Of a stretch of 64,000 nucleotides of DNA, positions 16,324 through 60,688 are shown piece after piece (position 1 is the first letter of the stretch; each line of letters starts with the position of its first letter). Where the stretch lies: NCBI GenBank assembly GCA_965112155.1, contig OZ218105.1; one strand, written 5' to 3'. The position numbers and the translations under genes were made by a program. The stretch comes from Podarcis liolepis (Eukaryota). The notes under the pieces are model-generated. The model made no database searches, was not told the origin of the DNA, and saw nothing but the letters and a program-made list of their open reading frames with translations.

Positions 16324-16489
16324 GCAACCATTTGGGAACTCTCCGGATGACTTGCTGTGTCAACACCCTGCATCAGAGTCTCCAAGCGATGAAGGGACCC
16401 TCCTTGACCAGCTTTACTTGGCACTAAGAAATTTTGACGGTCTGGAAGAAATTGACAGAGCTCTTGGGATCCCAGAACTAGTTAGCCAG
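16324..16489 (+). CDS. NCOA2: NCOA2 exon (~16), CBP/p300-interaction domain (AD1)
   Basis: ttcag|[41 protein letters not shown]|gtattg. Confidence 0.95.
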
Positions 16490-16942
16490 GTATTGTGCTG
16501 CTATTAAGCATTTCTGAAAATATATGTGGCTAAGGTATTTCAGTAGTGAGATTTCTTTTTTCAAATGGATTTCAAATGTTGACTAGATGTAATAATTATA
16601 AATATCCCTCCACATATTAACACTATGGAAATTACAGTATTTCATTGATAATGCAGTGTTTCCCATTAATTTAATTTGAGAAGCTTCTGCATGTAATCTC
16701 ACTCCCACTCCCGTCCCTAGGCAAACTGCCTCAGAGAGATGGAGGAGTTCGTTTAGGTCTTAATTATAGCCTGTCAGCTAGTCCCAACCCAATATGTATG
16801 GGAACAGCATGCCTTTTGCTACACAATGGAGGGAGCAGGACGGAAGTTTGGACTCAAGAGCCTGCAAGCAAATACCACTTGAAGCAGTGGTAGAGTGTTT
16901 AACCTGCGTCACTTACCTTCTGCTTTGTCAGGCTAAAGATAG

Positions 16943-17320
16943 GGGGTGTGTTGCAGTATAATACTGTTCCCAGGATCCCAAGTGACATTGGTAAAAGATG
17001 GCCCAGGAGTTCTTACCTTGAAATATAACCTGAGGTGTGTCAGCAGTGGTACAAGGTATTCCAGATCGTATTACTTTTGGAAGTCTCTTGTAAAGCAGCT
17101 GGTAAGCTGCCTGTTTGCCAAGCTGAAGCCTTGTCCATTCATGGGAGCAGCCTCTAATCTACCACCCTCTTCAGTGTCATTCCAATGACAGAAACATCAT
17201 ATATTAGAGTATGGATGAGGAGGTAAGGACTCCTGGGCCATCTTTTACCAAGGTTACTTGGGATCCTGGGAGCAATATTATACTGCACCACACCCCAGGA
17301 TGCCTCAGGTTATATTTCAA
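16943..17320. repeat. Imperfect inverted repeat, ~76-bp arms plus a permuted ~18-bp block
   Basis: 16943-17018 is the reverse complement of 17221-17296 with several mismatches; 17018-17035 is the reverse complement of 17303-17320. Confidence 0.85.
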
Positions 17321-18234
17321 CAGCTCCTACAAGTTCTTTCGTCATGTCCATCAACAGAGATGTTCTGGAGTATTATGGTTATGATGCTTTCTTCTTAAAA
17401 ACCCTCCAAATGCATTTTAGGGGATCTGACCTCCCAAAGATTTTATTTAAATTTAAAAGCACCTGTGAGGTGAGAGGAACTCTTAAGTAACTTTCTTTTT
17501 AACCATTTCTTCTGTAAGATTTTCCATCTAAATCCTTCCCCTCCAAAGCTGATTCTAGCCCTGCTGAGAACCACAGAAGAACTTATTTTCTTGTTTTACC
17601 TCCAGCAAAAGAAACTACTGATTCATTTAAACAGGGGGAATGGTTCTGGAGTGTGTGTGGAGAGGAGGGTGAGTTAAGCACTCCTCTCTCAGAGTACCAT
17701 CACTCTGCTTGCTGGAATTCTTCACCAGCTTCTGATCAGAGTTGGAGCACGTTTGTAGGGCTGATCAGGTATTTCTTGTAGCAGTTCAACCCTGGTTCAC
17801 CACTGCAATCTGAGGCAAGATTTAAAAAAAAATTAAAAGAGAAAAGATATGAATGGTTTAGAGCAGGGACCTCCTGTATTGAACCAGCTCAAACATGACA
17901 GGAAATAGTAATTTCCCACCATGTGAATGAGCAACGATGAACCTCATCTTCACACAGTCTCCCCTGTCCTCGCACTTGCAAGGAGGGTATCAGAAGCTTT
18001 GGCTTCAGTTTTTATACAAGCTGTGCTTTGCCGTGGCACCTGAACTTTGGAAACTGCTTGCACTTGTGAGGAAATCCAGGATCAAACTGTGGCTTCTTCT
18101 GATCTGCATGAGCACAAAATGAAGAGAAGAGGGGAGTGTGCAAGCCCCCAGACTCATCAAGGCTCCTCAAGAATAGTTTCTTGTTTGCATCTGAACCAGG
18201 ACTCTGTTTATCACATAGTTTTTTCCCTCAATTA

Positions 18235-18478
18235 CAGTCATACCTTGGTTCTCGAACGCTTTGGTACGCGTACGGTTTGGCTCCCGAACACCGGAAACTT
18301 AGAAGTACGTGTTCCGGTTTGCGAACATTCTTTGGAAGCCAAATGTCTGACGTGGCTTCTGCGGCTTCCAATTGAATGCAGGAAGCTCCTGCAGCCAATT
18401 GGAAGCCACACCTTGGTTTTCAAATGTTTTTGGAAGTCAAATGGACTTCCAGAACGGATTCCAACCAAGGTACAACTG
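18235..18478. mobile_element. Non-autonomous Tc1/mariner (Tigger-like) MITE
   Basis: TA|CAGTCATACCTTGGTT ... AACCAAGGTACAACTG|TA. Confidence 0.85.
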
Positions 18479-18501
18479 TAGTTCTGAATGAGTCACAAGT
18501 A

Positions 18502-18727
18502 CAGTGGTACCTTGGGTTACATACGCTTCAGGTTTCAGACTCCGCTAACCCAGAAATATTACCTCGGGTTAAGAACTTTGCTTCAGGATGAGAACAGAAA
18601 TTGTGCTTCGGCGGCGCGGCAGCAGCAGGAGGCCCCATTAGCTAAAGTGGTGCTTCAGGTTAAGTACAGTTTCAGGTTAAGAACGGACCTCCGGAACGAA
18701 TTAAGTACTTAACCCGAGGTACCACTG
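18502..18727. mobile_element. Non-autonomous Tc1/mariner (Tigger-like) MITE
   Basis: TA|CAGTGGTACCTTGGGTTA ... TAACCCGAGGTACCACTG|TA. Confidence 0.88.
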
Positions 18728-18887
18728 TACTAATAAATGGTAATAGAAGCATAGAATGAGTTAAAGCAAATATAAGTTTATGCTGCTCAGCTTCATACAT
18801 CTTTATTCTGCTTTATAAAAACATATATTTCTCAATAACTGTTTAAGCATTCTATGTTCATGTACATCTTGATGTTTGTTTCAGCAG

Positions 18888-19166
18888 AGCCAAGCTGTGG
18901 AACCAGAGCCATTCTCAAGCCAGGAATCAAACATCATCCTCGAACAAAAGGCACCCATTTTCACACAGCAGTATGCATCTCAGGCTCAGATGGCCCAAGG
19001 CAACTACACACCAATGCAGGACCCAAACTTTCACCCAATGGCGCAGCGACCAGGCTATGCATCACTGCGAATGCAGCCTAGGGCTGCCCTGAGGCCTGCT
19101 GGCATAGTGCAAAACCAGCCAAATCAGCTAAGGCTACAGCTGCAGCATAGACTTCAAGCACAGCAG
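18888..19166 (+). CDS. NCOA2: NCOA2 exon (~17), Q-rich region
   Basis: cagcag|[22 protein letters not shown]|gtattt. Confidence 0.93.
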
Positions 19167-19211
19167 GTATTTCATGCTTTTATGCTCTCTGTTGATGCTT
19201 TTACCAGCATG

Positions 19212-19420
19212 CATAGAATCATAGAATTGTAGAGTTCAAAGGTTCCCCAAGGGTCATCTCTAGTCCAACCCCCGACAACGTAAGAATCTCAGCTTAAAGC
19301 ATCCATGACAGATGGCCATCCAGCCTCTGCTTAAAAACCTCCAATGAAGGGGAGTCCACCACTTTCAGGGGAGAACATTCAATCTCGAACAGCTCTTACC
19401 ATAAGAAAGTTCTTCCTCAA
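19212..19420 (-). mobile_element. CR1 LINE 3' end
   Basis: (CATAGAAT)n, the reverse of the CR1 ATTCTRTG tail, followed by ..catc..tagtccaacccc. Confidence 0.8.
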
Positions 19421-19522
19421 GAAGCACTGTATCGTAAAACTAAACCTTGCCATCAAAGCAGAATTTTTCTTACACTGCCTTATATGACTGATTTCTTTAT
19501 TCCGTTTTTCCCCTTGCCCTAG

Positions 19523-19600
19523 AATCGCCAGCCACTCATGAATCAGATCAGCAATGTTTCCAATATGAATCTGTCTCTGAGACCTGGAGTACCTACACAG
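19523..19600 (+). CDS. NCOA2: NCOA2 exon (~18)
   Basis: cctag|[26 protein letters not shown]|gtgagg. Confidence 0.92.
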
Positions 19601-21188
19601 GTGAGGGAACAGGTATTGAAAATGTTTCTATTCTGACGTACCCAATTGATCCCTGTACTTATCATCTTATCAGCAGGTCCCTTCTGTACAACATTGGTAT
19701 TATTATTATTATTACTAGTACTACATTTTTATACTGTCCTTCATTCAAAGATCACAAGACAGTTTAAAATAAGGCCTTTGGATTCCCTCCCATGAAACAT
19801 TAGGCACCTTCTCTTTTGTCTTTTTGGTGCAACAAGCCTTTTAAAGACGAGATCTTTCACAGTCTGCCTCTTTGTTTAGCTACTTTCATTGTTCTGTCAC
19901 TTGTGTGCTCCTTTTAAGAGGAAGGGTAGGAAATGAATTTAATTAATAAATAAAATGTTCTATAAAACTTAGTAGTTCATGTTTTTTTACTATATTATAC
20001 TGACGTTACCGATGTTGCAGTCTCTGTCACGGTACACATCGCCATTGTGCAGCTCTGTTTCCTTGCTTTTGGTGAAATGACTAATTCCATCTCGAAGAAT
20101 ATTATAGTCACAGTTTAATCTGTGGAGCAGGAAATTGTGAAGCTCTTTCATGCTGTACCAGAAGCTGTATGTGTATGCTTCTGGAGAGGCAGAGAATTTC
20201 TCTATGTTCCCTAAGCAGGCCATACGCAAACTGACCACAGACCATGCAGTGAAACCTGCAACTCTTGTTGCATATGAATTTATCCTGAAGAATAAGAGGT
20301 GGCCAATGTGGCTCCCTCCAGGTATTGTTGGGCTAGACATCTTTAAATGAATCCAAATATTCTAAGTAGGGATGACATCGTTTTCTCTGAGTTTTAAAAT
20401 CTGTTACATCATATCTGGAAACAGCTTGAAATGGTGGAAAGCTTTCAGGACCTTGCAAGAGGTTTTATGCTTTTTGTCAGAAAGGTGGCGCTTACGAATA
20501 TTTTTAACTTGAGAAAGAAAGCGTGAGAGCTATTTTTAATTTTATTCAAATCAGCATAGCTTGCTTTATTCAATTTATGGATGTGAGAAGTGCACACTCT
20601 GGTTTTAGGCTGTAGTGTGGATAAGTAAATTTAGATTCTGGACTTAATTGTATTACAGGGTTCACGATTTTTTGATGGTAATATGTTTTACTCCCCATAC
20701 TACAAAATGTAGCAATCCAGCTGTTTCAGGGACTCTCCTGCTCACTCTGCTATGTACAAGCTGGACTTCTGCTCAAAATTTGGGCCTTCAGCAACACCAA
20801 ATTTAGACATCACTTAGAAAAATTGCCTTATTCTAGGAATTCATATGGTAATCGGTGTATCTGTTTTAGAATTTATTACCCCAGAATGAGAGCTCATAGG
20901 CCAGCTGAAGAGCACATTTACATGCCGCATGCAAAAGTTGCTGCTTCAATCCATGGCATTTCTAGTTAAAACTGTGCCTGAGCCCTACTCCAAGTAGACA
21001 GTAGTGAGCTAGGTAGATAAATAATCTGTCTGGCCTGGTATTAAACAGCTTCATATGTTATGTGCCAGAAAGGTAGCTCTTCACCTGATTATTGTAAAGT
21101 TGCTAGGGTTTTGTTTTTTTAGTAGCCAGGCTGATGGAAATGCCTTGCTAATCGTATGTGTTAATGCAGTTTTTTGCTTACCCTGCAG

Positions 21189-21417
21189 GGACCCATCAAT
21201 TCCCAGATGCTAGCCCAGAGGCAGAGGGAGATACTGAGCCAGCACCTGAGGCATAGGCAGATGCAGCAGCAAGTGCAGCAGCGAACGCTGATGATGCGAG
21301 GACAGAGTATGAATATGACGCCGAGTATGGTGGCCTCCGGTGGCATACCAGCAACAATGAGCAACCCGCGGATTCCCCAGGCAAATGCCCAGCAATTTCC
21401 ATTTCCTCCAAACTATG
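21189..21417 (+). CDS. NCOA2: NCOA2 exon (~19)
   Basis: ctgcag|[25 protein letters not shown]|gtattg. Confidence 0.93.
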
Positions 21418-21913
21418 GTATTGCACTTATTTCAACACCTTTCATCCATCACAATAGTCTCAACTCCTGGATCACAGCTCCTTTCCTACTGTTCTTTATA
21501 TGGCTCCCAGATGAGACACACCATCTGGAGATACTGGGAATTGGGTTGGGGGGGTGATGGTAGCATTTAAACTTGTTGGGATTCTCAAAATGCAAAACAG
21601 TATGTTTCTGGTTTATTACAAAACTACCAAAAAAAACTCATTTGTTTTGCTAAAAAGTCATATATCACAAAACAAAGTAAGCCGTGAACTTTATCCCATT
21701 TCTTTGGTACCTCAAAAAAAGATGATATTAGTCTTCAGCAGGATTTTTTTCACTGTAGTTTATGGTAGCCTTGTTTTGTCCTTGTCCAAAAAAGTCCCCT
21801 CAAAATAGATTCCATTACTGCTGTACTCCTAGTGAAGGCCATTCCAAGCCATTACATACTTCTGGCTGAATTGTTGTGTGCAGCATGAGTAAGAATCCTG
21901 TTGTGTTTTCCAG

Positions 21914-22091
21914 GAATAAATCAGCAGGCCGATCCAGGCTTCACTGGAGCTACCACTCCCCAAAGTCCGCTGATGTCCCCAAGAATGGCTCATACCCAGA
22001 GTCCCATGATCCAGCAGTCTCAGGCCAATCCTGCCTACCAATCCTCTACGGAGATGAATGGATGGGCACAAGGGAATATGGGTGGAAACAG
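21914..22091 (+). CDS. NCOA2: NCOA2 exon (~20)
   Basis: ccag|[29 protein letters not shown]|gtacgt. Confidence 0.93.
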
Positions 22092-22319
22092 GTACGTCAG
22101 TTTTGGCCGTTGTCACATAGCTCATTCATGCATTTTTTTCAGCAATCATCCTGTTGAATCTGGGCATTCACAGAACACAGCAGTGCTGCAGACTGACACC
22201 AGAATCATTATTGGGAAAAGAGAGCGAAATATAACATGTGACTTCTATACATGAGGCCATGTCATATGAATTGTACATTCTCTTATGGAGCTATAGGGAC
22301 ATATCCAGCACTGCATAGT

Positions 22320-22640
22320 AGTAGTAGCAGTAGTTGTTATTAAATTTGTATACTGTCCTTCACCCGCAGATCTCACGGCAGTTCACAACATAAAATTACA
22401 ATATAAAAACCACAAAATAACATAGTAAAAATAAGGACAACAAACCAATAATCCTCCTTCCCACAACACATTTAAAAGGGCATCAGATGTCAGTCAGCCA
22501 AAGGCCTGGTTGGAGAGAAACATTGCCTGGCGCCTAAAGGTCTATCATTAAGACATCAGCCAGAACGCCCTGGGGAGAGTATTCTACCAACAGGGAGCCA
22601 TTGCAGAAAAGGCCCATTCTTGCATTGGCACCCTCTAGAC
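22320..22640 (-). mobile_element. Degraded L2 3' end
   Basis: ttattaaatttgtatactgtccttcacc..ctcacggcagttcacaac..aaaggcctgg pattern; related stubs at ~8650 and ~19710. Confidence 0.6.
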
Positions 22641-23682
22641 CACTTATACAATGGGATTTCCCCTTTCTGTCCACTCTCTGCATTCCCCCTACTTCTGGTT
22701 AGGGTGGGGGTGGTCTTCCTGAAGCAGATTTTGATGGCGCATGGTTGGTCTGCAGTGAGGAAGAAGAGGGATTTCTGTTACACAAGTGGAAGTCCGTTGC
22801 TCAAGCAGAACAACTATGACTAGTTTACACTTTTTTCTTATGGGGCCTCTCATTACTAAGTAGGAATTTCCATGTCACCCAGTTTTCAAAAAGATCAAGT
22901 AACTACAAAAACATGTGAATTTCTGATTAGAGTTTTATTCTGCATGTTCGTAAAACCAATCCATAATAAAATATATGTGATGTGTATTTATCAGCCATGG
23001 GCTAAAAATATAAATCACAGTTCAATCCTTGTATATCCAATCAGAAGTCAGTCCTATTAAATTCATTGGGACTTATTTCCAGGTAGTCGTGAATAGGAGT
23101 GAAGCAAATTTTTTGAAATGATAATTATTTGTAAATTATGACTTGAAATCATCCCAAACTGCTTTTTCTTCAGTTTTCTAGGATCTTTTCTGCTACAAAG
23201 ACAGTGGACTCACTAAACTACTTAGTCTTGCAGGGCTTTAAATTTTCTGCCTACTGACAGATAATTAGATAGATATATACACACACATCTAGATCACTGC
23301 ATTGGTATCTCTTGAATGAGCACGACAACTATGTTTAGATGGCCCTAAGGTTTAGCTCAGAATATTTTAAGTGTCTTTGCATCTTGATGTTAAAAGATAA
23401 GCAGGAAAAGTTTCTTTTCCAATTTATTACTCTTTTAAAGATGCTGTAGGTCTATTTAACACATATATTATTTTGGCAAATTGTGGGGAGAATTTTTGCA
23501 GACCTAATCATCACATTACTTACAAGCTGAGAAAGAAATGCATGCTTTGTGCACTGATAATCAGACTCCATTTATTGAAGGCGTCCCCAGATGCACTAAC
23601 CCTCTGAGGTGTTCAGGAATGTTCAAAGCCCGAAGGATGAACATCTTGATTCTGACGTGCTGGTGTGTATTTCATCCTGCAG

Positions 23683-23881
23683 CATGTTTTCACAACAGTC
23701 TCCTCCACACTTCGGGCAGCAAGCTAACACCAGCATGTACAATAACAACATGAACATCAATGTATCCATGGTGACCAACACAAGCGGTATGAACAACATG
23801 AACCAGATGACAGGACAGATCAGCATGACCTCAGCAACCTCTGTGCCTACATCAGGGTTGTCCTCCATGGGTCCTGAGCAG
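23683..23881 (+). CDS. NCOA2: NCOA2 exon (~21), AD2 region
   Basis: tgcag|[21 protein letters not shown]|gtgaga. Confidence 0.93.
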
Positions 23882-24250
23882 GTGAGAATTCTCTGCCTGG
23901 TCAAATTTGTAACCAGTAGTTGATTTAATACAGCTTTTCCCAACATATATTACCAATTTTAACATTTGCCTGGAGACACTCCCCCTCTCACAGTAACCAA
24001 CTCAAAATAGGGCAAGAGCAAAATGTGCATAAGAATGACAGTGTAAAGAAGGGAGAGAAGTGGAGGTGAGCACATAGCACAACACCTTGTATGACATGTG
24101 CCTCCTCATTAAGTCTGCTCTCTTATTTTGTTATATTTTTGCTAGAAAGGTGTGTGTGTCTGTGCATGTATGCATGCAGTGTTGTGGTTTATTCAAAGAT
24201 GCTTTCTATTTCCCCCAGTGACTTACAAACGAGTCTTCTCCTTGCCGTAG

Positions 24251-39099: not shown

Positions 39100-39652
39100 A
39101 TGGCCTCCTCCTCCTCCTCCTTCTCCGCCGAGCCTGACCGAGGCGAAGGCAGCAGCGAGTCTTTGCTGATGCTCCTAAGGGGCTGCCAGCCCGGGCCCGG
39201 CGTCGCCTCCCCCTTCGGCCCGGTCCTGCCAGCGCCGCGCTTCCTCGAGGCGCAGCCTTCCGCTTGCCCCTTCCAGACGCCCCTGGGAGCAGGACTGAGC
39301 CCCGGTTCGCCTCGCCTGGCGCCCTTCCCCTTCTCGCGCCTGCCCGCCGCCGCCTTCCTGCCTCCTCAGCTGCTGCCGCCGCCGCCGCCCGGTCCTCCTC
39401 TGCCCAGGCCCCAGCCGCTGCCAGTGGTCTTCCCGTCGCCCTTGGCTCGGAAGGGCGAGTCGCCTCGCCGGCGCGTCTCCGAGGGAGCGTCGCCCAAGAA
39501 GAGGAGCCCCGACGGAGCTCCGGACGCCGAGCAGCGCGCGCCCACCTACCGCTTCACGGCTCAGGAGCTGCACGCCGTCCTCTACGGGGCCGGGCCAGGA
39601 GGGAGGCAGCAGGGCGCCATGGCGGGAGCCGGCCACCCTCCTCGCAGCCCGG
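39100..39652 (+). CDS. PRDM14: PRDM14 exon 2 coding part (exon starts at 39067): P/S-rich N-terminus and pre-SET motif
   Basis: YRFTAQELHAVLYG matches the conserved F(T)EE(D/E)LxxVLYG pre-SET motif; donor G|gtaagg; start codon choice uncertain. Confidence 0.8.
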
Positions 39653-41118
39653 GTAAGGAAGGCACCCGCGCGGGGTTTCCCCACAGCCTAGAGGGCGGAG
39701 GGTGGAGGGCAGGAAGAAGGCGGGCTTGGGGTGAGAGGGTGGCTGCTTCATAGGAAGAAACTTTTCGACGAGGACGACCAAGTTTGCACAAAAGCTTTTT
39801 TCCCCGGGACGTCTCACTGCCCCAACGCGAGGCTCCTTGGATAGGAACGTTTCCTCAAATAAAAGTAAAGCGTGGCGTCAAAAGAAATGGAACTTTTCCC
39901 CACCCCATTAAATCTGCTCCCAGATTTAAGATCGTTATGAAACTCTTGCCCCCCGGGTTAAATAACAGGGGCAAGAAGAACCCTTCTAATACATTGAATT
40001 CTGGGTTTTTGGTGCACATACAGAAAGAAAAGTGGCTGGAATTTGCGGACTGTTTTTAATGGGCAGATGGCAATATCCTAGAAAGACTCTGGTGCAGCCG
40101 TGGTCAACTTCTGTCCAAATTTTGCAAAGAAAAGTACACCCCCTTTTTATATAACCCCCCCCAATGACTGGAATAGGATGGGGTGGGAGGAGAGAGTGAA
40201 GTAGAAGTTCAACCATTAATTGCAGGCAAATTTAAACTGGGTTTTAAAAAATCGGAGCAGTTCTGTGGAAAAACTAGATAATGGCACAGCTGGAGTCAAT
40301 TTCTCTATTCTATTTTAACCCAACAGTTTATTTTGGCCATGTGTTTACTGTATATTGCTTAAACTGATGAAAACGATTGTATCTGTCGGTGATTTTTAAA
40401 AAGCATTGGGTGAGGAACTGGTGTAAGTATTTTATTATCGTCCATGTATTGGTTAAATACGTTTTCAAAGCAAAAATGTTTCTGTGGAAGGAGAAACTCT
40501 GAATGCTTCTGGAGAGTCTCTCTTGACTCCCTTTTTTGTTACATTTAATCCACCCCCAAATAAGAGAATCTAAATTTTTCTCAGAAGGGCTCCTCTTGCG
40601 AAAGAAGACCCTGATCATGCTCTTCAAGACTCCAACGCCTTTGCCAGATAAGAGTCAGGAAATCCTGCACTTTAACAGCAGGGCTATGGAATAAATTACC
40701 CGCTCACCCCCACTGTAACCATCCATCCCATATGCTTCAGAGAAGTGGTTAAACTGGGACAGAGTGGGGACCTTTAGATGTGTCTGTGCCCGCGCGGTTA
40801 TTTTCTAACCTTATCTTGTTGGTACTGAAGGGTGGGGTAGTTTATTTCGGATGTATTACTCCGGTGTAACAGGGTTTACGTTTTGTAAAGGCACGAATCC
40901 TATGAGTTTCTATTCAAATTCCAATGAGGCAAATACTGATTCCAGCCTATTTTATTGCAGGGTCCGTAGACCCCGTGTAACTGCAATCCTCGCTCTACTT
41001 TCATGGGAATCGCCTATTTAATTCGGTGGGACTTACTTCTGAGTAGGCATGGTTGGGATTGCGTTGTTAGTCCCAGTTGTCTGATTGCAGTACTAGTTTC
41101 CCTTTGCTTTCCCGTTAG

Positions 41119-41175
41119 GCGCAGTTGACGGTCAGCCGCCGCTCCTGGACAGGTCTTCTCTGCAACTCCCGGAAG
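41119..41175 (+). CDS. PRDM14: PRDM14 exon 3
   Basis: ttag|GAVDGQPPLLDRSSLQLPE G|gtagct (compare LDKDSLQLPEG); alternative in-frame acceptor would start the exon at 41125. Confidence 0.85.
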
Positions 41176-41337
41176 GTAGCTGCGTTTGTTTGGTTTGGCT
41201 TTTGTCAAGGGGGTGGTTGGGGAAGAGGGATCAAGGCTGATCCTTTTGAGTTCTCCTCGTTTTCTTCAACCCAAAGACTAATCCCTCTCCCTTATTCCTC
41301 TCTTCCCCCCCCCGCCCCCCCCGTTTCCTCTCTGTAG

Positions 41338-41495
41338 GGCTGACGGTGTTGCAGACCGTCTACGAGGACAGCCCGCAGCTGGGAGTCTTCTGTACCGAGA
41401 CCATCCCGGTCGGCGTTCGGTTCGGCCCTTTCCAGGGCAAAGTTGTCAACATCAGCGAGATCAAGACTTACGACGACAATTCCCTGATGTGGGAG
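41338..41495 (+). CDS. PRDM14: PRDM14 exon 4, PR/SET domain
   Basis: GVFCTETIPVGVRFGPFQGKVVNISEIKTYDDNSLMWE|gtac. Confidence 0.95.
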
Positions 41496-41719
41496 GTACA
41501 ATTCGCTGGTGTACTGTCGCTTTCTTTTCTCCGAGGGGAGGTGGGGGGGGGCTGGATGCCTCAAGCCACGCCTCTGCATAGCTGATCACCGCGCTTACAG
41601 TACTTGGGAAACCAGTTTCTCTGGTTCCAAGGGGTCTTACTCCCAGTAAATGCGCACGCGGTTCCAGCTTTCTAAGGGAGATAGCGCATTTCCCTCCTCA
41701 GCTGGGTGTTTTATGAAGA

Positions 41720-41925
41720 AAGCAGTGTGGAGTAATGGTAGAGTGTTGGACTAGGAAGCCCAGGGTTCAAATTTCCGCTGAGCCATGAAACTCCTAGGGT
41801 CAATCAGTCTCTCAGACTAACCTACCTCACAGGGTTGTTCTGAGGATAAAATGGGGAGGAAGAGGACCGTGAATGCCGCCTTGAGCTTCCTTGTAGGGAA
41901 GGTGGAATATAAATGCAAAAAAATA
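41720..41925 (+). mobile_element. Old tRNA/CORE-type SINE
   Basis: A box (gtggagtaatggtagag), B box (ggttcaaatttc), ctaacctacctcacagggttgtt core, A-rich tail. Confidence 0.7.
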
Positions 41926-42318
41926 AACAAAGGGCGTATGATGCTGGACTCCCATCAACCTCAGGCAGCACGGCCAGTGGTTAAGACGAGTGTTTTAGTC
42001 CCATCTTGAAGTCCAGACGTTCCTCCACCGCTGTCTACTCTAGAGGAATAGGTGGCTTGGCTATGAAAAGATCCTGCGCAGATTGATTTAGAAGCAATCC
42101 CCATTGCTATCTCCTAACTAAGCGCGTCCATGAGGATTGCGGTTTAGCTGAACGCCAAACCCCTTGCTTTCAACGTGAGTGGGGCGAGGGAGCAGGAAGG
42201 GGCGTTTAGATCCCCCCCCCGCCTCCCTGCCAGGAGCGGCGTTGCCTTCCTGGGTTGCTGCTGTCGCTATAAGCGCGGTGAGCAACCGTGTGTAAAGTTT
42301 GTGTGTCCATCCCCACAG

Positions 42319-42589
42319 ATTTTTGAGAACGGCCGCTTGAGCCACTTCATCGACGGCAGGGGCTCCTCCGGCAACTGGATGTCCTTGGTGAACTGCGCCC
42401 GCTTCCCCGAGGAGCAGAACTTGACGGCCCTGCAGTGCCAGGGGCAGATATTCTACGAGAGCTGCAAAGAGGTCACGCCCGGCCAGGAGCTGTTGGTCTG
42501 GTACGGGGATTGCTACTTGCAGTTCTTGGGCATCCCTATCAGCCTGAAGGGAACGGCGGAAGGGAAGCCTGTCCAGGCGCACAGTGAAG
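42319..42589 (+). CDS. PRDM14: PRDM14 exon 5, PR/SET domain
   Basis: [40 protein letters not shown]. Confidence 0.95.
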
Positions 42590-42899
42590 GTCAGTTGGCA
42601 ACCTTCCAAGGCTCCGTAAGAGTCGCGCTCAGAGCTGTTGCAGCCGGGAATCTGAACGGTCTGCTCTGTTTGCACATTGGCTCTCTCCCCATCCCCTAAT
42701 ACCGCTTGTAAGTTCAAAAGAAGTTAAATGCTTCACTTTATAGTCTGGTTGTCCACTTATAAAACTCCCAGTTCATTGCATTTATTCCTCCTTTTCCCTC
42801 TTTCACTTTTTGAGCGCGCGCCTGCTTCTGAAACTAGGTGGCTATAAAAGAACCAACCACCCCTGACGGTGGCTTTTTCCTTCCCTTTCTCACCCTCAG

Positions 42900-43102
42900 A
42901 GTCTCTGGAGGGCTATAAGTGCGAACGCTGCGGCAAGGTGTTCGCCTACAAATACTACCGCGACAAGCACCTGAAGTACACCCGGTGCGTGGACCAAGGG
43001 GACAGGAAATTCCCGTGCCAGCTTTGCAAGCGATCTTTTGAGAAAAGGGACCGGCTGAGGATCCACGTCCTGCACGTGCACGAGAAGCACAGGCCTCACA
43101 AA
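42900..43102 (+). CDS. PRDM14: PRDM14 exon 6, zinc fingers 1-2
   Basis: GYKCERCGKVFAYKYYRDKHLKYTRCVDQGDRKFPC..HVHEKHRPHK|gtaagg. Confidence 0.96.
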
Positions 43103-43423
43103 GTAAGGGATCGCCAACTGGCGCCGCCGCCTTTCTCTTAGAATCTGAAGGCGGGAGAGCCCGCCTTGCCTCGAAGCAGCTGCAGCAGCAGGAAATAAGT
43201 GTTTCAAAGAGTGCAGAGTGCCACCCGAACTCCCCCCCCCAACACGCTTCTCAGGAATGGAAGCAAGACTCGGGGAATGTGTGCGATGGGGGGGGGGCAT
43301 TGCTGGGCAGGGACATCTCAGGCGATAGATTCAGGATTGCCAAAGGGAATCGTCCTCAATAAGACGATTCAATTATCCTTGAATCGTGGGCAAGTTGAAC
43401 GGTCCGTGTATCTTTCTCCATCT

Positions 43424-43584
43424 CAGTGGCGTAGCGTGGGTTGTCAGCACCCGGGGCAAGGCAAGTAATTTGCGCCCCCTAACCCGTGGATTTGCGCCCC
43501 CTAACCAGTGGATTTGCGCCCCCTAACCCCCAGATGTTGCGTCAGGTGCGGCCGGCCCCCTGCACCCCCCACGCTACGCCACTG
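43424..43584. mobile_element. hAT MITE with three internal ~22-bp tandem units
   Basis: TIR CAGTGGCGTAGCGTGGG; perfect TSD CTCCATCT; (ATTTGCGCCCCCTAACC)x3. Confidence 0.9.
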
Positions 43585-44022
43585 CTCCATCTCTCTCTCT
43601 CTGTGCGTGTGTGTGTTCTGTGACTTGCTTTTGCGTGATTGTGGTTTCATCCAACGGGAACTTTACTCTTCTGTTTTTAATTTTAAAAAGGTCTTTTGGT
43701 CGTTTTCATAAAAGGCTCCGTGCGTGTAGCCTTACTTGGGAGTAAGTCCCATGGATAGCAATGGGATTTGACTTCCGAGTAAACATTGCTTTGTATGGCA
43801 TCGGGCTTAAATACGGTGTGTCACAAAGGATGCCCTCGAAAGCCTCTGCAGCTGTTACGTGTTGCATTTGTGTGTGTGAATGCGGAGGAGTCTAAAGGAC
43901 TGTGATAGGTTGTTCTCCGTGGGCACTTGATTTCGTTTAAGCTCCGCCTAAGTAGGCTGAGGCAGAGACTCAATGCAGTAGTTATGTATTAAGAGTACGT
44001 TTTCTTTGCGGTCTAGTTAGAA

Positions 44023-44299
44023 CAGTGGTTCTCAAAGGGTGTGGCAGTAGAGGGTGGCGGGAGGATTCAAATACAATCAATATTATATGTTATTATGTGG
44101 GTGCATTGTTTTTTCTGGGTGTCCCATCATCGTATTATAAAGCAGCTGTGTTCTGAGTTACAAGTCATGCACTGCTAGGAGTTGCTTCTTTGTCTTTTCC
44201 AATGTATTTCTTATCGATAAAAAACAAAAAAATCGGTGTGGCGCCTGCAAATTTTACTTCTGAAAGCGTGGCCCAAAGAAAAGAGTCTGAGAACCACTG
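44023..44299. mobile_element. hAT MITE
   Basis: TIR CAGTGGTTCTCA/TGAGAACCACTG; TSD AGTTAGAA/AGTTAGGG. Confidence 0.8.
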
Positions 44300-45180
44300 A
44301 GTTAGGGAGTGAAGGAAAACCATGGTGACACTTCCGGGGAGGGGTCCTGATTGTGCCCCCTCCCCCCCCTTGAGAAAAAACAACGCAGAGAGTTCAAGCT
44401 ACTCGCCTGCTTCACTGCAGGGAGTGATTGCAGCTCCAGGAAACCACAATTGCAAAACTCACCACCTCTGCTGATTCTCTGCCCTGAAATCTTTTTTCCT
44501 CTTGTTTTGTTGCTGTCCCTCCCTTTCCCTCCCCCCTTCCTTTTTTAAAACCATGATTACTTGCGGTTTATTGGAGCAAGCGTTCGGCCTCACCTCTGGA
44601 GCGCACTTGTCTGAAAGCAGACCCAGTTCATTCAAAGCCAATGAGGTTTGCTTGTGACGGTAGTGATCTTCACACAAAACCCCTAGCAATGAAATCGGGT
44701 GGATCGAGTTCCTCAAGGTAATGGTTCTGGATAGTTCACCTGTTGTGAAATTTAGAAGCGTGGTGTTGCATTTAGTTGCAATTGCACTACACTTTTGGAA
44801 ACAGAATTACAAAATGGAAAGGTTATGGAACTTTTAAATATAGAGATAAGTGTGCTTTCTGTCTCTTCTCTCCCCTGCTACACCCAAGGATTCCAGGCAC
44901 TGAAATGTCCTGTAGCCTCTCCAGTATCTTCGGTTGCCTGGAATAATTAAAGATGAACTAGGCAAAGGGGAATTCCCATAAGTGCCATATTTTAAAGAGC
45001 AGCTCCTTATTTGAATTGTGTTAGAGCTCCTGGCAGGGGGAGGAGAAAGAAGACTCATTTCATAGTGAGAAACTGATCTCACCCACTTTTACTTAGAAGT
45101 AACTGACAGACCAGCCTTTATGTATGTATGTATATATAGAACTATAGCCTGAGGCTGCAATCCTATACTTACCTAGGAGT

Positions 45181-45262
45181 ATAGAATCATAGAATCATAG
45201 AGTTGGAAGAGACCACAAGGGCCATCGAGTCCAACCCCCTGCCAAGCAGGAAACAGCATCAG
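45181..45262 (-). mobile_element. CR1-type 3' tail, 5'-truncated
   Basis: atagaatcatagaatcatagagttggaagagaccacaagggccatcgagtccaacccc. Confidence 0.8.
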
Positions 45263-45389
45263 AGTATGTCTGATTAAATTAACTGGGGCTTACTTCTAAG
45301 TAGATAGTCTTAGGAATGTGCTCTGAAAAGGTGTCACTTGACTTGATTGCTATTCCAGACAATAGCTGAGTACTATCTTCCATTTAATA

Positions 45390-45915
45390 ATATACATTCA
45401 CATCATCATTATCCACTTTACCACCCTGGCTCTTTAGAGTCTATCAACTTCCTTCCCTCCCACCTCATGGCTTTCAAAATTAACCTTTATATCATTACAT
45501 TTCGTATGTTTCCCACTTCTAATCACACTCATTACAAAATAGCTCAAAATGTAAATAAATAAACTTCTCATTACAAGTCTTCAGATAACCTTGCTAGTGA
45601 TATTAATTGCTTACAATAATCTTTCAGATATTGAATAAATTCACTCCAGTCCTTTTGGAATACTTGATGGTGCTTGTTTCGGATTTTTCCTGTCAGCTTC
45701 GCCAATTCTGCAAAGTCCATCATCTTCATCTGCCACTCTTCTTTCATTGGTACTTCTTGTTGTTTCCATTTTTGAGCTAAAATAATTTTTGCCACAGTTG
45801 TTGCATACATAAACAGTTTTTTTTATCTTCCCTTCATATCTCTTCACCCACTATACCCAATAAAAAGGCTTCTGGTTTTTTAACAAAAGTATTTTTAAAT
45901 ACTTTAACTTCAATC
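45390..45915 (-). mobile_element. L1-clade LINE, ORF2 C-terminus and 3'UTR fragment
   Basis: Minus ORF YATTVAKIILAQKWK..EEWQMK..AELAKLT..F..DW..FIQYL resembles the end of non-mammalian L1 ORF2. Confidence 0.7.
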
Positions 45916-46422
45916 CAACAGACTTAGGACAGCTTTATAACATTTTAGTTTTGTCCTTGATTTGTACCACTCTGCCATAAAACTTGCAGAGAACACCCCA
46001 GATGTAGAACCTCTCTTGGGTGCTTTGTTCTCCACAAAGGGTGACAGGAATGGGGAGGAGGGAGGTGCTAGCACATTAACTTAGCATCCAACCATGACTT
46101 CTGAACTGATGGCTGTTCACTAACAACCTCTCACGAACTAGCATTACACTTTCTTCAAGCCCAGCTGGCCATATAAACACAACTTCAACTCAGTTGTCTC
46201 ATTCCCTAGCCTTGAAATCTGATTAAGCGGGAGGAAAAAGTGAGACATCTTCCTTCATTTTCTTCCCTTGTTACAGGGACAGAAAGAGGCTCAGCTTGGT
46301 AGCAATTAAGTGGTAGCAATTAAGAAGTCCCAGATAATAAACAATGTTAAAATAGTTTTGTAAAATGGTTGCAAACTACAAGTGCACCTCCCCTTACATG
46401 CATCCCACTCGGAGACCTCATA

Positions 46423-46468
<46 letters not shown>

Positions 46469-46504
46469 GATAGATAGGTAGATAGATAGATATAGATAGA
46501 TAGA
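46423..46504. repeat. (GATA)n microsatellite
   Basis: Directly visible. Confidence 0.98.
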
Positions 46505-46845
46505 CTTCTCCTTGTTTGGGGCTGCTGCCCAGAAGTTGCTGCCTCAGTGAGGGAAGGTGGCCTTTGATTGACTAGCGGCTTCTCACCTCCATTGTGGGTC
46601 CATGAACCCATCGTGGCACCAGTTACGTTGGACGCCCTTCTCTGCCCCTGCCCTCTGGCCAGCCAGCCACTGCTGCTGCACACACTGCCCCCCCTCAGGT
46701 AGGCAGGCTCAGTTCAGGCTAGGCAGCTGCCACAGATAATGAGTCTCTCCCTCCCTCCCCTCCCTCCCTGCATGCCCTCCTTATTAAAGTTAGCTGCTCC
46801 CCACTTTACACGAGTTCACTTATGCGTGCGAGGGGCCAGAACACC

Positions 46846-46851
<6 letters not shown>

Positions 46852-46891
<40 letters not shown>
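46852..46891. repeat. (GT)n microsatellite
   Basis: Directly visible. Confidence 0.98.
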
Positions 46892-46892
<1 letters not shown>

Positions 46893-47304
46893 TCAGCCTC
46901 TGCTTTAACATAACAATGCTTTGAAAATGCGTGAAACTATATAGTAGGCACCAATGCTCCAGTATTGGACAAGACTACAGGCTTATGCCAGAGTGTTTTC
47001 TGGGGGACGGGGGGAATCAGACTCTCAGGCCTTGTTATCACTGTGCACCCAAGTCCCCACAAATTGATCAGAGCATCTTTATAGAGGAATCTGCAAATCA
47101 GTGTGTAGGCTTCAAGCCTACACAGCGAAGGCACGTAGTACAGGCAGAGAGGGGCTGTGGCTAGAATAATCTTCTTGGCATGATTCATACATATAGGTTG
47201 AAACCTTGTATATTTCTACATTCTACATGCATTATTTTTTATATGTAAAAAAGCACATTATCAATTATGTTTGCCTTCTCTGTCTCGTCTGTATTCCTAT
47301 CTAA

Positions 47305-47556
<252 letters not shown>

Positions 47557-48296
47557 TAGGATGTTACGTTCTCTGGCATGCTCAGTTTAATCTGTTTTAA
47601 TTCTGAATTTAATGTTGAGCCCCAACTATGTTAGATGTAATGCAGAAAACACACGGCAGGTCTCCCAACATATGCATTTGTTATTACTGCATCTGGGAAG
47701 GCATGGGAATACAATGTTTTCTATTTGCAATGTACTGGAGTCTCAGCCTCCTTAGGTGGATATAAGGCTATCTGATACAAGCTTTTATTCCTGGGGTCCC
47801 ACACCTGAACAGACTGTTATAAAACAGTGGTGTGGTTGATGAAATTTTAGGCTCTGGATTTAACCTTCTTGCAGCCCTCTTCCACTTAGATGATAAATAA
47901 TTAAAGTAGCAAGGCAGCCCTGCTGGGTCCCCCCCCCCCCGGGGGGGGTGGTTTTGCTGAGTGGGACCTTGGATTTCTTCCTCAAAGTCCTCCCTTAACA
48001 GCATCACAGACTGCAAAACAAAATACCACCTTTTGATGGTGACTGACTTGTAAGTTGATTTGTCACATGTGTTGCCTGCCTGCCCTTTAGGGGAGCTTGT
48101 GGAAATGTATATGGAGCGAGTCCCCTTTTTATTTCCACTACAATCTTGTGAACTAGGCTTGTATGAGAGATAATGATGACTTGCTCAAGGCTATTTACAG
48201 AATGCCATAGCTTGGCTGTGATTTGCACATAGTTTCCCACATCCCTCCTTCACTGGCTGTGAACATGTAAGGCTGGCATTTTATCTGCCATATATA

Positions 48297-48653
48297 GTAA
48301 AGGTAAAGGGACCCCTGACCATTAGGTCCAGTCGTGGCCGACTCTGGGGTTGCAGCGCTCATCTTGCTTTATTGGCCGAGGGAGCCGGCGTACAGCTTCC
48401 GGGTCATGTGGCCAGCATGTCATGTGGCCAGCTTCTGGCGAACCAGAGCAGCGCACGGAAATGCCGTTTACCTTCCCGCCGGAGCGGTACCTATTTATCT
48501 ACTTGCACTTTGACGTGCTTTCGAACTGCTAGGTTGGCAGGAGCAGGGACCGAGCTACGGGAGCTCACCCCGTCGCGGGGATTCGAACTGCCAACCTTCT
48601 GATCGGCAAGCCCTAGGCTCTGTGGTTTAACCCACAGCGCCACCCACGTCCCA
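48297..48653 (-). mobile_element. Full-length Sauria SINE
   Basis: (ACCTTT)n tail, B box (gttcgaatccc on the minus strand), typical body; 14-bp TSD ATCTGCCATATATA at 48283 and 48654. Confidence 0.92.
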
Positions 48654-48784
48654 ATCTGCCATATATAAGACCCAGCAAAAGTCCAATTGGTTCTCCTGCT
48701 GTAGAAACAAGCATTGAATCTTAATTACAATTTTGTGAGCATGTGATTCCTTTCATCTTGTTTGTCACTTGTAGCTTTGTGTCT

Positions 48785-48791
<7 letters not shown>

Positions 48792-48845
<54 letters not shown>

Positions 48846-48868
48846 TGTGTGTGTGTGTGTTTGTGTGT
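48792..48868. repeat. Compound (CT)n(GT)n microsatellite just upstream of the PRDM14 exon 8 acceptor
   Basis: Directly visible. Confidence 0.97.
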
Positions 48869-48916
48869 AAAAGCTTTTTATGCCACCTGAAATCATTTTG
48901 TTCACCATCTCCATAG

Positions 48917-49147
48917 GCATTCACCGCCTCCAGCATCCTGCGTACCCACATCCGCCAGCATTCAGGAGAGAAGCCTTTTAAATGCAGACATTGTGGCAGA
49001 GCATTTGCTTCCCATGCTGCCCATGACAGCCATGTGCGGCGCACACACGGTGCTAAAGACAACTGCCGCACCTGTGCTTTGTGTGGCAAGACCTTTTCAG
49101 AGCTAGAAGAATTCCGCTTCCATATGAAGTTTCACATGGGCCATTAG
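48917..49147 (+). CDS. PRDM14: PRDM14 exon 8, zinc fingers 4-6 and stop
   Basis: AFTASSILRTHIRQHSGEKPFKCRHCGRAFASHAAHDSHVRRTH..CALCGKTF..HMKFHMGH*; about 524 aa in total from ATG 39100. Confidence 0.95.
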   Translation, partial: AFTASSILRTHIRQHSGEKPFKCRHCGRAFASHAAHDSHVRRTHGAKDNCRTCALCGKTFSELEEFRFHMKFHMGH

Positions 49148-55795: not shown

Positions 55796-56631
55796 GAGCC
55801 TATTAGAAAAGAAAAGGCTTCTATTGATGCCTGGTGAGCCCAAGGCTTTCACATTAGGAGCACTATGCTCCAAGCATAACACTGAGCTGCGAGGTAGCAA
55901 TGGAGAAGTTGGGAGGTGAGTTTTATTTTTTAGAATAAATGACTGATAAGTGACTGATGGTCACTGTATCTACAACGTATACTGATGGTAGCTTTTTGTT
56001 ACTGTTGATATTAGTATTCTTTGTGTCTCATTTTTTTCTCTTTCTTTTTTCCTTTCCTTTAATCCCCCCATGTTTTTTCCTTTCTCTCCTTTTCCTTGTT
56101 AAATTTGCTAAAAAATAAATAAATTAAATCAACTACTACTAATGCAAATAGTACAATGCCAAATACAAATTCCACTTACTAAGCACAGCTATTTCCCCTT
56201 AGTATGGACCCTTCTCACAGTCCATTATTCTGAAAAGTGATTCCTTGGTGGTTGTTTTTAAGTTGCAAGTCCCTGTTCTGCTGGCATAAAGTTGAAAGCC
56301 AGGTTCTTAGCAGTCTTCTTGCCAGAAAGCCAATATAGTACAATGGTTAGAGTTTTACTTCGGAGTAGGTGGCTCCATTTCTATTGCCTGTTTAGCTATG
56401 GAGCTCTCCTTGTGCAGGGATGGAGTTTGGTCTTTCAGCAGCACCCTGTGTGAGGCAAAAATCTGGTGCCTCTCCGCTTCTTGCCTTTTGTTCTGCTCAA
56501 TTCACTATGTCATAGTTGCAATGCCCTGTGGCGCCCCCTAGGCTCAGCGACGAGTGCAGGGGAACTGGTTGCACTGCCCTAAATCTGCCTCTGCCTTGTG
56601 CAAGTCATTCTTTGTGTCTCTTATTAACTTA

Positions 56632-56959
56632 CCGTATTTTTCGCCCTATAGGGCGCACCGGCCCATAGGGCACACCTAGTTTTTTGGGGGGGAAATAAAG
56701 GGGAAAAAATTATTTCTCCCCCAGCCCCCAGAACAGGCTGCTATCCACAAGCCTTGGGAGCCCGGCGGGAACTCCTGCCGCACTCAGAAGGCTTGCGGAT
56801 AGTTGCCCGAAGCCTGGAGAGCAAGAGGGATCGGTGCGCACCGACCCCTCTCGCTCTCCAGGCTTCAGCGAAAGCCTGCATTCGCCCCATAGGACGCACA
56901 CACATTTCCCCTTCATTTTTGGAGGGGAAAAAGTGCGTCCTATAGGGCGAAAAATACGG
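56632..56959. mobile_element. Tc1/mariner (pogo/Tc2-like) MITE
   Basis: TA|CCGTATTTTTCGCCCTATAGG ... CCTATAGGGCGAAAAATACGG|TA. Confidence 0.9.
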
Positions 56960-58769
56960 TAAGTGGGGTTACGAGGACAAAATGCCACGAGCTGCTTGGA
57001 GGAAGAGCAGGATTTCATATGTAGCAGGCAAGCATCTCCCAGGTGCTATGCATATGTGTCACTAAGGCTGTGTTCCAGTCTCTTATTACACTTCAGCATT
57101 GAATATAAAAGCTCCCCAGCAGCACATGGAAGTGACTCCCACACACACTGTGTGTGTGAAGGGGGCTTTAGCTTGGATGCTGATGGAGCTGTTCAACTTG
57201 AATCTGGAAGATCTAAGACCTTAGCCATGGCTCCATCACTTTGCTAAGTCTCCTATCCCTGAATGTTAAGTGGGGATAATAAGTGGCCTACCCTGTGCAA
57301 AGCAGCTAATCAAAGGTGATAGCAAAGCGATAGCCAGAAGCAGCAACCTCAAAAGATCATGGGCTAAGATTAAAATTAAGCAACAAGACACAGGATAATT
57401 TCCCCAACTATTTCAGATTATGTCTCTTGAACTGGAATAGGCCCAGATGCATTCTAAAAGCCCTTCTAAAATCCATGTTACATGTCTTGAGTCCCCAGTA
57501 GCAACTTGGACTTAAGGCCATTCCCCTCCACTGCCCCCAGGGTTCAAGGGGAAAATGCAGTGGGGTTTTATAGGTGTCTGGCCTTTGTGCCATCTATCCA
57601 ATCCTGGGGCAGGCTGCTGCTGGCTCTCCCTGGAGGAGCTTCACTTTTCAACGTGTTTGACCCACAGACTCTCTCTAAGTGGCTACCTGTCAGTTTCCAT
57701 TTCAGCCTTACCTTACTGTTTACATGAGTGCTGACCACTGCCTGACATATTACCTGTATTGATTCTCTAATAGCTGTCAAGGTGGAGAGAGAGAGACTAT
57801 TCTAAGACAGGGCTTGGAGCTCTTAGCCGAGTAGGATCATAAACGCCTCCCATTAAAGGGTCCATTCAATAACAATCTTTACCAAAGTAAATGGACATCA
57901 GTGGGCTCCCCAGCAGGCTGCCTAATGCAAAGGCCATTATAAAGCACCGAGGCAGAGCTGGAGGAAGGTTATGGCTGTGGTATCAGTTTCAGCAATGTTT
58001 TTCAAGTGATTCCTTTAATGAAAAGCACGTTCTTTTTTATCTCAGGGCCGTAATAGAGTTGCTCAGAGTTGTCCTGTGTACCTAAGGCCATATCCGCTAA
58101 GAAAAAATAATCAAGTTGTTTTAGCCAGCGTTTACTTGCAGCTAACAGTAACAAGGCAGGTGCATATTTGTCTCCTGGAAACAACAACAACACACAACCA
58201 TAAAATAATCATTTTTCTGGTGGTCAGAAATGGTGCAATGCCCTGTACAAATATTAATAAAATGATCCCATTCTCATTGCAGTGTTGGGAAGCAATACTA
58301 AGTCATCTCATCTATCAGATTCTGGATTAGTAACACACCAATTTAACTTTTTATATTTTTTATTATCCAAGCCATACAGGCTAGACGTTATATCTCTATC
58401 TATATATGGCATCTTTTCTAAAAATTAAAATTGAGTTTTCAGGATGTCGGTGGGAACTACCAGATTTAATGTAAGACTATGGAGTTCAGCGTCACACACT
58501 ATGTTGAATGTTCCATCTGCCAAAGGTATCAGCTTGCCAGATGAAATGATCCACCTTTCCTCCCCCAGTTTTATGGGGGTTCTCTCAAGCTCCCAAGCCA
58601 ATTTTTGCGTGTGTGCAGAAGGAGGAAAGATCCTTTGCACAAGTGGAAGCCCTTGTACAGGGCTTCTGCTGATCATGTTTATTAGGCAATGCCCACCCAC
58701 CATGTTTAGAAATGTATTGCGCACAAACAGATTCCTGGACCTCCAGATTCCTGGACAACTGAAGGTGGC

Positions 58770-58900: not shown

Positions 58901-59561
58901 TATAACATGTGTGTCTCTAAATGCTGTAAAATCTAAACTGAGTGCCAAACTAGACACAACACTTTTGGGAGCCTACATCAGAGGGGTTTTGGGTTGGGGG
59001 TGGGGATATTAATAGGCATAGGGGGTTATTGCTCATCAAGACTGCCTCCTATGGCCCTGAGAAAAATCATCCCCAGCCGCAATGCCTACTCTTACTCCAG
59101 AAAGGAACTCCCAGGATTACCAATGGAGGCTAATAACAGGCAGAGAGGATAATCATAATCTGGGCTCCAGTGCTGAGAAAAGGTTAAACCTATCTCTGTG
59201 TAGTTATGCTCCACCCTGCCCCACCCGCACTGTCTTATCTTTCCTTTTCTTTCCAGCTGATGTGTTTGCCAGTGACATGATCAGCATTAGGTCAAGTTTG
59301 GCTTTGAGGTTCTCTTTGTTCCAGCAGATCTCCTTTGAGGACAGCCATGGACAATTTGCATTGTGGACAATTTGCCTTGCCCTTGACTGGAGCAAATGAA
59401 AGCCGCAAGGCTCTGTTGTGTAGTATCTGAGCTCATTTTGGTAGTTAGGAACCCAACACCCACCCAGTCACCACATCTGCTGTATTGGAGGGCGTTTGGG
59501 TGGGGTGGAGATGTCTCTCCACTCACCTCTGCTGATGCAGAACAGCTGTGCTCACCTAAAC

Positions 59562-60088
59562 CAGTGTTTCCCAACCGGTGTGCCGCGGCACACTACTGTG
59601 CCGTGAGACACCGGCTGGTGTGCCGTGGGAGGGAGGCGGGCGAGTCGGGCGGCGAGAGGCGGCGGCGGCGGCGAGGATCCGCGTCGAGCCGGGGGCGGCT
59701 CCGCGGTGGTGGTGCCGAGCGGCGGGGCAGCTCGCGCAAAAGGGAGGAGCGCGAGACAGCGGAGGAGGAGGAGGCCGGCATGTCCGGGCAGCAGCAGCAA
59801 CAGCAGCAGCAGCAACTCCCGGCGACGGCTCCTCCTCCGCCCGCTATCGCCGCCACCACCACAACAGCCGCCGCCGCCTCAGCTGCCGCCGTCCCTCAGT
59901 CCCTCGCTCTGCTGCCTCCTCCCACCCCGGCAAGGGGAAGGGAAAAAACGTTCACTTTTGTGCGTCCCCCCCCCCCCGCGTGACGCTGCGCGCTGACGTC
60001 ACGGGGCGGGGCTTTAATGGTGGTGTGCCGCGAGATTTTTTTCTGGTAAGCAGGTGTGCCGTTGCCCAAAAACGTTTGGGAAACACTG
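59562..60088. mobile_element. 527-bp non-autonomous hAT element with GC-rich cargo
   Basis: TIR CAGTGTTTCCCAA/TTGGGAAACACTG; perfect TSD ACCTAAAC; subterminal GTGTGCCG repeats. Confidence 0.92.
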
Positions 60089-60433
60089 ACCTAAACTATG
60101 GATTGACAGTAGCTAACCCCCACCCCCGATGTGCTTTCTGGGATGGGAAAGGAGGAGGTGGAGCTTGGCTGGCTAAGGACAGTCTGGATTCAAAGATGGT
60201 TCAGCTTCTGGCAAGTTGCCACACAGGGCATGATCTGGGCCCCACTGCTGCATGAGTCTGGAGTTGATGCAGCAAAGATTTTGAGGGCTCCTTTCCCCTA
60301 CCAAACATCCACCTTGGCCAGCATGAGTGGCAGCGCTCTGCATATGCCCATGGCTTTGCTGCTCCATTAAGCCCCAGTGCTGCCTGCCAGAAGTTTGGCT
60401 TGCTCTATGTACCACAACCATAACAGTCTAGCC

Positions 60434-60688
60434 CAGGGATCAGCAAACTTTTTCAGCAGGGGGCCGGTCCACTGTCCCTCAGACCTTGTGGGGGGCCGGA
60501 CTATATTTTGAAGGGGGGGAATGAATGAACAGATTCCTGTGCCCCAGAGATAACCCAGAGATGCATTGTAAATAAAAGGACACATTCTACTCATGTAAAA
60601 ACACGGTGATTCCCATACCATCCGCGGGCTGGATTGAGAAGGCAATTGGGCCGGATCTGGCCCCAGGGCCTTAGTTTGCCTATGCATG
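60434..60688. mobile_element. hAT (Charlie-like) MITE
   Basis: Ends CAGGGATCAGCAAACT / AGTTTGCCTATGCATG; TSD GTCTAGCC/GTCTACCC; gggccgg subterminal motifs. Confidence 0.8.

Follow-up and report, generated by a model that had tools for sequence, protein, structure and literature searches.

The window, that is, the whole 64-kb stretch of Podarcis liolepis DNA analysed here, contains the 3' exons of an NCOA-family gene at 4450-23900 and the coding exons of PRDM14 at 39103-49144, the first of which is 96% identical to a Podarcis lilfordi protein. The PRDM14 coding exons sit in an extended stretch rich in CpG (about 32-44 kb of the window). About 10.4 kb downstream of the last of them lies a short element of 527 bp, whose coordinates, 59562-60088, are exact. 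It is enclosed by the same 8 letters, ACCTAAAC, on the left (59554-59561, plus strand) and on the right (60089-60096, plus strand), a TSD with which the joint at an empty site agrees. Finding these letters on both sides upheld the boundaries and the 8-bp TSD given in a preliminary description of this DNA.

Structure, age and class of the element

The two TIRs (59562-59577 on the plus strand and 60073-60088 on the minus strand) had been called perfect, which is true of their first 13 bp and fails over the full 16 bp, where 15/16 letters agree. A left subterminal arm (59578-59631, plus strand) follows, with three copies of GTGCCG (at 59580, 59598 and 59620) and one inverted copy (59586). The right arm (59930-60072, plus strand) carries GTGCCG at 60025 and 60056, together with a CRE-like TGACGTCA at 59994 and a GC box at 60003, motif names that we take from general knowledge. 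At 59994-60011, in the right part of the element, the CRE-like palindrome is perfect and adjoins the GC box. The GTGCCG repeats of the left arm are likely to be transposase-binding sites.

Between the arms, the left part of the interior (59632-59719) is (GGC)n-rich with 81-85% GC, and relatives leave the sequence of the window copy at 59662/59677 and at 59719; a further GTGCCG lies at 59712, just ahead of a breakpoint. The middle part (59720-59865) contains (GGA)n, an ATG at 59780 and a CAG/CAA repeat at 59788-59816. The right part (59866-59929) is (GCC)n-rich and is preceded in other members, found in the sequencing runs X6 and X16, by a different upstream sequence of 136-139 letters. From the ATG an ORF of 67 codons (59780-59983, plus strand; polyQ/P/T/A) extends to a TGA; it yields the peptide quoted in the preliminary description and is likely incidental. 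The extreme GC and CpG richness reported for block 59630-59935 was borne out, with 75.5% GC and a CpG o/e of 0.94. The 1-kb flanks, described as AT-rich, have in fact 46% and 50% GC, and the contrast lies in CpG, their o/e being 0.13 and 0.18.

Two further short elements were observed nearby. One at 60434-60688, 345 bp to the right of the main element, is hAT-like and older, with a TSD agreeing in 7/8 letters (GTCTAGCC / GTCTACCC) and decayed CpG (o/e 0.36). The other, at 56630-56962, is an inverted-repeat element flanked by TA, presumably Tc1/mariner-like, and its interior is CpG-rich (o/e 0.73). Filler of this kind may occur in several MITE families in the window.

Four of the 24 listed runs were aligned to 59100-60420, among them the genomic-type runs X1 (organism A, which may be the source of the window) and X6 (organism F). 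Both contain a joint from 59553 to 60089, which skips 535 letters, namely the 527 of the element plus 8 of one TSD, and at this joint 8 letters fit both sides. In X1 the empty joint has a depth of 47.6 against 86.2 in the flank, a ratio of 0.55, and a flank contig terminates exactly at 59561; the insertion looks heterozygous in this run, and a pooled sample would give the same picture. In X6 a single unbroken contig spans the empty site at a depth of 98.2, its flanks differing from the window in 13/681 letters. Because the empty site is observed, the TIR/TSD structure is real beyond doubt, and because two genomic-type runs show it, one of them at 0.55 of flank depth, the insertion is recent, as had been proposed. 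At 59582, 59732, 60044 and 60050 the window copy differs from 89-97% of the X1 depth, so these are private or minor-subfamily changes despite the recent insertion.

The TSD pair together with the empty site, the short TIRs starting with YARNG and the subterminal repeats agree with the definition of hAT elements in the cited part of Novick et al. (PMC3014272). A target site of the form nnnTAnnn, which marks the Buster/Charlie group according to the portion of PMC3499496 used here, is seen both in ACCTAAAC and in CTCTAGAG, which lies between tandem copies. With its 527 bp, its many similar copies and its lack of transposase (its three long frames gave no Pfam match), the element is a MITE, and its earlier reading as a non-autonomous hAT element stands.

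The left-arm motif was recovered in three metagenome loci on eukaryote-like contigs, of which one codes for transposase (L001, 1-1906) and two are short with AT-rich interiors (L002, 3480-3838; L003, 989-1779). Contig L001, a distant relative, matches over 47 bp only: its end agrees with bases 1-47 of the element at 93.6% identity (44/47), subterminal repeats included. Behind this common left end L001 has AT-rich DNA (35% GC) and then transposase-coding ORFs; in the Atlas these come closest to clusters of FAM200/ZBED5/GTF2IRD2-like hAT transposases (score 0.96), and they have no meaningful match in Pfam, NCBIfam or PDB. Moreover, over its last 68 bp the element is 72% similar to the right end of the L003 MITE. 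The GC-rich interior has no match in any of the three loci. The L001 transposase clusters and the nnnTAnnn TSD point to a Buster/Charlie-type hAT, an assignment made on sequence likeness. Judging from the identity of the L001 terminus, the family may have spread widely or horizontally.

Other searches gave little. A 15-nt arm motif had 70 matches in viral contigs, none of them extending beyond chance-level length to the element, and searches of prokaryotic genomes and viral contigs with the interior motifs gave 0 matches. Rfam returned 2 matches (E 0.1-0.8), far under the gathering score, and a scan of the element for bacterial promoters and terminators, a method not applicable here, found nothing.

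Copy number and mosaic interiors of the family

Of the 24 listed runs, 20 contain 50% or more of the words sampled from the interior. The runs with the interior come from 12 studies under 11 organism labels, two of them comprise only 1 million letters, and no RNA run is among those listed. In total, 4137 contigs of X1 and 3218 of X6 aligned to 59100-60420, and 71% and 60% of them, respectively, are at least 95% alike to the window copy. The summed contig word depth reached 0.39-1.26 million in the interior bins (the CAG repeat was skipped) against 78-98 in the flank. This sum is not a copy number, and we bracketed the latter between a floor of sum/31/flank, the division by 31 allowing for maximal word overlap, and a ceiling of sum/flank. 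Over four interior positions the bracket is 179-9785 for X1 and 111-5398 for X6, and the mean depth per variant contig is 101-215x that of the flank. The family is therefore likely to have hundreds to thousands of copies in lacertid genomes (about 100-10,000, as estimated from these brackets). Varied flanks on reads at both TIRs, and a further copy in a myosin-7B-like gene model, also show it to be multicopy. The interior is thus the standard interior of a high-copy subfamily and not a rare one-off cargo.

The copies share the same arms and carry other, mostly GC-rich interiors, swapped at about four breakpoints that lie at or near GC-rich repeats. These breakpoints were drawn from the best-supported 24 of 241 loose ends, each seen over at most 30 letters. 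The one at 59662/59677 is found in 12 contigs of X1, 20 contigs of X6 and 89 reads of X24. At 59719 the switch occurs in both directions in X6, with an alternative upstream sequence that contains CCAAT in 7 contigs. The breakpoint at 59762 is represented by one X16 contig of 255 letters, and that at 59865, which interrupts the proposed ORF near codon 29, by X6 and X16 (including X16 record 14). Among the same best 24 loose ends the alternative interiors are, by eye, mostly GC-rich and unlike the window, and the alternatives at 59970, 60007 and 60043 are, also by eye, right arms in diverged form. Donor loci or host CpG islands, rather than sister subfamilies, could account for some of the single-contig loose ends, and since the best-supported 24 of 241 were examined, a single-copy donor would stay hidden.

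We also examined X24, which consists of raw RNA reads from one bulk library of organism F, of which about 12% was read. There were 981 reads on the element in both directions, 84% of them continuing into unlike sequence, and 0 on the flanks beyond the element junctions; the pattern fits read-through of many copies within host transcripts. Because the 59562 locus is empty in the genomic run of organism F, X24 is silent on that locus. The element as a transcription start was considered and rejected, as no pile of read starts or read ends was seen in this portion of the library. In fifteen X24 reads (14 starts, one direction) a right TIR is connected to a left TIR through a single 8-bp TSD, and in the X24 consensus the TSD behind the right TIR is followed immediately by another hAT-type TIR. 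Such tandem hAT insertions could move as composite elements.

The open reading frame and the origin of the interior

It had been suggested that the interior carries a captured host 5'UTR with its start codon and polyQ N-terminus; in the version weighed here, a single capture from a regulatory gene was followed by amplification. The (GGA)n leader, the G at -3 of the ATG, the homopolymer runs with synonymous third positions and the CCAAT-containing sequence ahead of 59719 all speak for such a first exon. The expected identity of the peptide with the N-terminus of a host protein was not found in the proteins searched. The MSGQQQ peptide had no match at E<=10 among 5856 candidates (proteins of 89-2000 aa), none at E<=0.001 among 1.84 billion representatives (50% identity) and no usable match in the Atlas. 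In a local sensitivity test an exact match scored E 3e-15 and the first 29 aa alone E 9e-6, and 15 of 15 simulated versions at 70-90% identity scored 2.2e-5 or better. In addition, a matched control, a 50-aa low-complexity piece of PRDM14, retrieved two lacertid proteins, PRDM14 included. The 90%-cluster protein search covered the plus-strand polyQ and the minus-strand polyLeu frames, the other four frames lying outside it. Proteins longer than 2000 aa, also outside this search, leave some room for a donor, GC-rich first exons are frequently absent from annotations, and a non-coding donor would have escaped searches at protein level.

The ORF itself also argues against a captured N-terminus. 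Among 1000 dinucleotide shuffles of 59630-60020, an ATG ORF reached 50 aa or more in 641 and 68 aa or more in 464, and an ORF of such length is therefore at chance level. In the Gln, Leu and Cys frames, 3 of the 6, the CAG/CAA interruption leaves the amino acid unchanged, and the codon-like pattern is equally strong in minus-strand frames. Moreover, the ORF is cut by the 59865 family breakpoint, and no GT[AG]AG splice donor was found at its end. The polyQ ORF is thus likely a by-product of trinucleotide-rich, stop-poor DNA, the suggestion of a captured start codon and polyQ N-terminus did not hold up, and we regard the capture of a host first exon as very doubtful.

In the minus-strand polyLeu frame there was 1 match among 809 candidates (proteins of at most 2000 aa), a UniRef myosin-7B-like model of Podarcis muralis without a start Met, here called P0003. 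Its residues 1-41 equal the minus-strand frame at 59827-59705 in 41/41 aa and are followed by an ordinary myosin head. P0003 was rejected as the donor, as the 41 aa cross the 59719 breakpoint in the window copy's own arrangement. Most simply, its N-terminus is another copy of the element swept in by the annotation pipeline; exonisation of an element copy could also have produced it. No donor locus was found by the protein-level searches in these two frames or within the 64-kb window.

As the lacertid autonomous partner was not seen, the interior could be that partner's own sequence, namely a GC-rich UTR remnant grown by GGC/CAG/GCC slippage with no host donor. The depth of the interior is near the family level and the extra GTGCCG at 59712 stands just before a breakpoint, as such an origin would allow, and most Anolis hAT MITEs are deletion derivatives according to the cited part of PMC3014272. 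Against this, the sole transposase-coding relative, L001, is AT-rich behind its left end, none of the three metagenome loci matches the interior, and deletion alone would not easily give several interiors between the same arms from one parent. We consider a self-derived interior unlikely. Slightly less likely still, in our judgement, is that parts of the interior are fragments of other repeats, such as the GC-rich 5' regions of LINEs, SINEs, LTR elements or DNA transposons, brought in by nested or composite insertions. Anolis hobo elements do contain TE filler (PMC3014272, in the part cited), and the tandem elements with one TSD in the RNA reads indicate that composites can form. A larger donor repeat, however, might raise the depth of the interior above that of the arms, which is not observed, and the longest match elsewhere in the window is 24 bp.

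With moderate confidence, we favour the reading that this is a recent high-copy hAT MITE whose subfamily-wide CpG-rich interior is non-coding filler from a host CpG island of promoter/5'UTR type. The host origin of the filler is plausible from composition, motifs and analogy. A lacertid Buster/Charlie-type transposase would move the MITE in trans, cutting and pasting any DNA between these arms. Filler might be taken up when broken donor sites are repaired through template switching to nearby open GC-rich chromatin, and new interiors would then be reshuffled among copies by recombination and amplified. Precedents for single steps are given in the cited portions of three papers: TcBuster has a weak preference for TSSs and CpG islands (PMC3499496), hATs of Anolis acquire extraneous DNA and undergo recombination between copies (PMC3014272), and in a frog a hAT element picked up a 5'UTR and then increased in number (PMC8277862).

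Comparison with known systems and significance

The nearest counterparts are the Charlie-related non-autonomous hATs of Anolis, hAT-HT3N, the "orphan" families hAT-N3/N4 and hobo-N, as presented in the cited part of Novick et al. (PMC3014272). Like the present element, they are squamate elements of a few hundred bp with TIRs starting with CAGTG and 8-bp TSDs with a central TA, and they have hundreds to more than 1000 copies, uptake of extraneous DNA and recombination between elements. The right TIR of our element closely matches that of hAT-HT3_AC, by eye and over the TIR only. The filler of the Anolis elements is mostly other TEs, whereas here it is CpG-island-like.

Among animal Pack-TIRs, as far as they are treated in the cited part of Tan et al. 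(PMC8277862), the element is most like Pack-hAT-N8_XT with its CAPSL 5'UTR, in which hAT ends enclose some 300 bp of non-transposase DNA and which moved again after capture. Pack-TIRs, however, have a known parental locus and are present in low numbers; 4 multicopy cases are given there, the frog example lying in 3 places, and the lizard assembly anoCar2 is listed with 0 Pack-TIRs. Membership among them requires a parental locus; none was found here at protein level or in the window, and the copies probably number hundreds to thousands. Bat Helitrons such as HelibatN3/NUBPL are likewise non-autonomous and amplify host promoter/5'UTR DNA to thousands of copies in the cited part of Thomas et al. 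(PMC4224331). The likeness depends on a host origin of the interior, and Helitrons differ in being rolling-circle elements rather than TIR elements and in having identified donors.

The element also shares with TcBuster and other Buster hATs, as described in the portions of PMC3499496 and PMC12637253 used here, the 8-bp nnnTAnnn TSD, TIRs of 14-16 bp and a need for subterminal arms. A related terminus adjoins a FAM200/ZBED5/GTF2IRD2-like transposase in L001, whereas the element, unlike TcBuster, has no transposase. Its arms are at or below lengths that are poor for AnBuster, unless interior DNA counts (PMC12637253, in the same portion).

As it stands, the finding adds one more squamate hAT MITE family. 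Searches of the open-access literature turned up no description of the lacertid family, which may already be catalogued in Repbase, Dfam or subscription journals. The finding also gives a caution, since an interior that resembles a gene start has by now entered a public gene model (P0003). Should donors come to light, the family would count as a high-copy reptilian Pack-hAT; the multicopy Pack-TIRs published for animals are rare and of low copy number (PMC8277862). We put forward tentatively, as a possibility rather than an expectation, that still-mobile lacertid Buster-type MITEs have repeatedly captured, shuffled and spread pieces of host CpG-island promoters and 5'UTRs to thousands of loci. 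If true, these MITEs would parallel, by cut-and-paste transposition, the promoter-carrying Helitrons of bats, and polymorphic CpG islands, CRE and GC-box motifs and CAG repeats would have been seeded, here 10 kb downstream of PRDM14, which we take to be a germline regulator. With thousands of such mobile CpG-island pieces, some of them apparently still polymorphic, filled and empty alleles could then be compared within one animal, and they would show if a CpG island remains unmethylated after insertion and alters the neighbouring gene.
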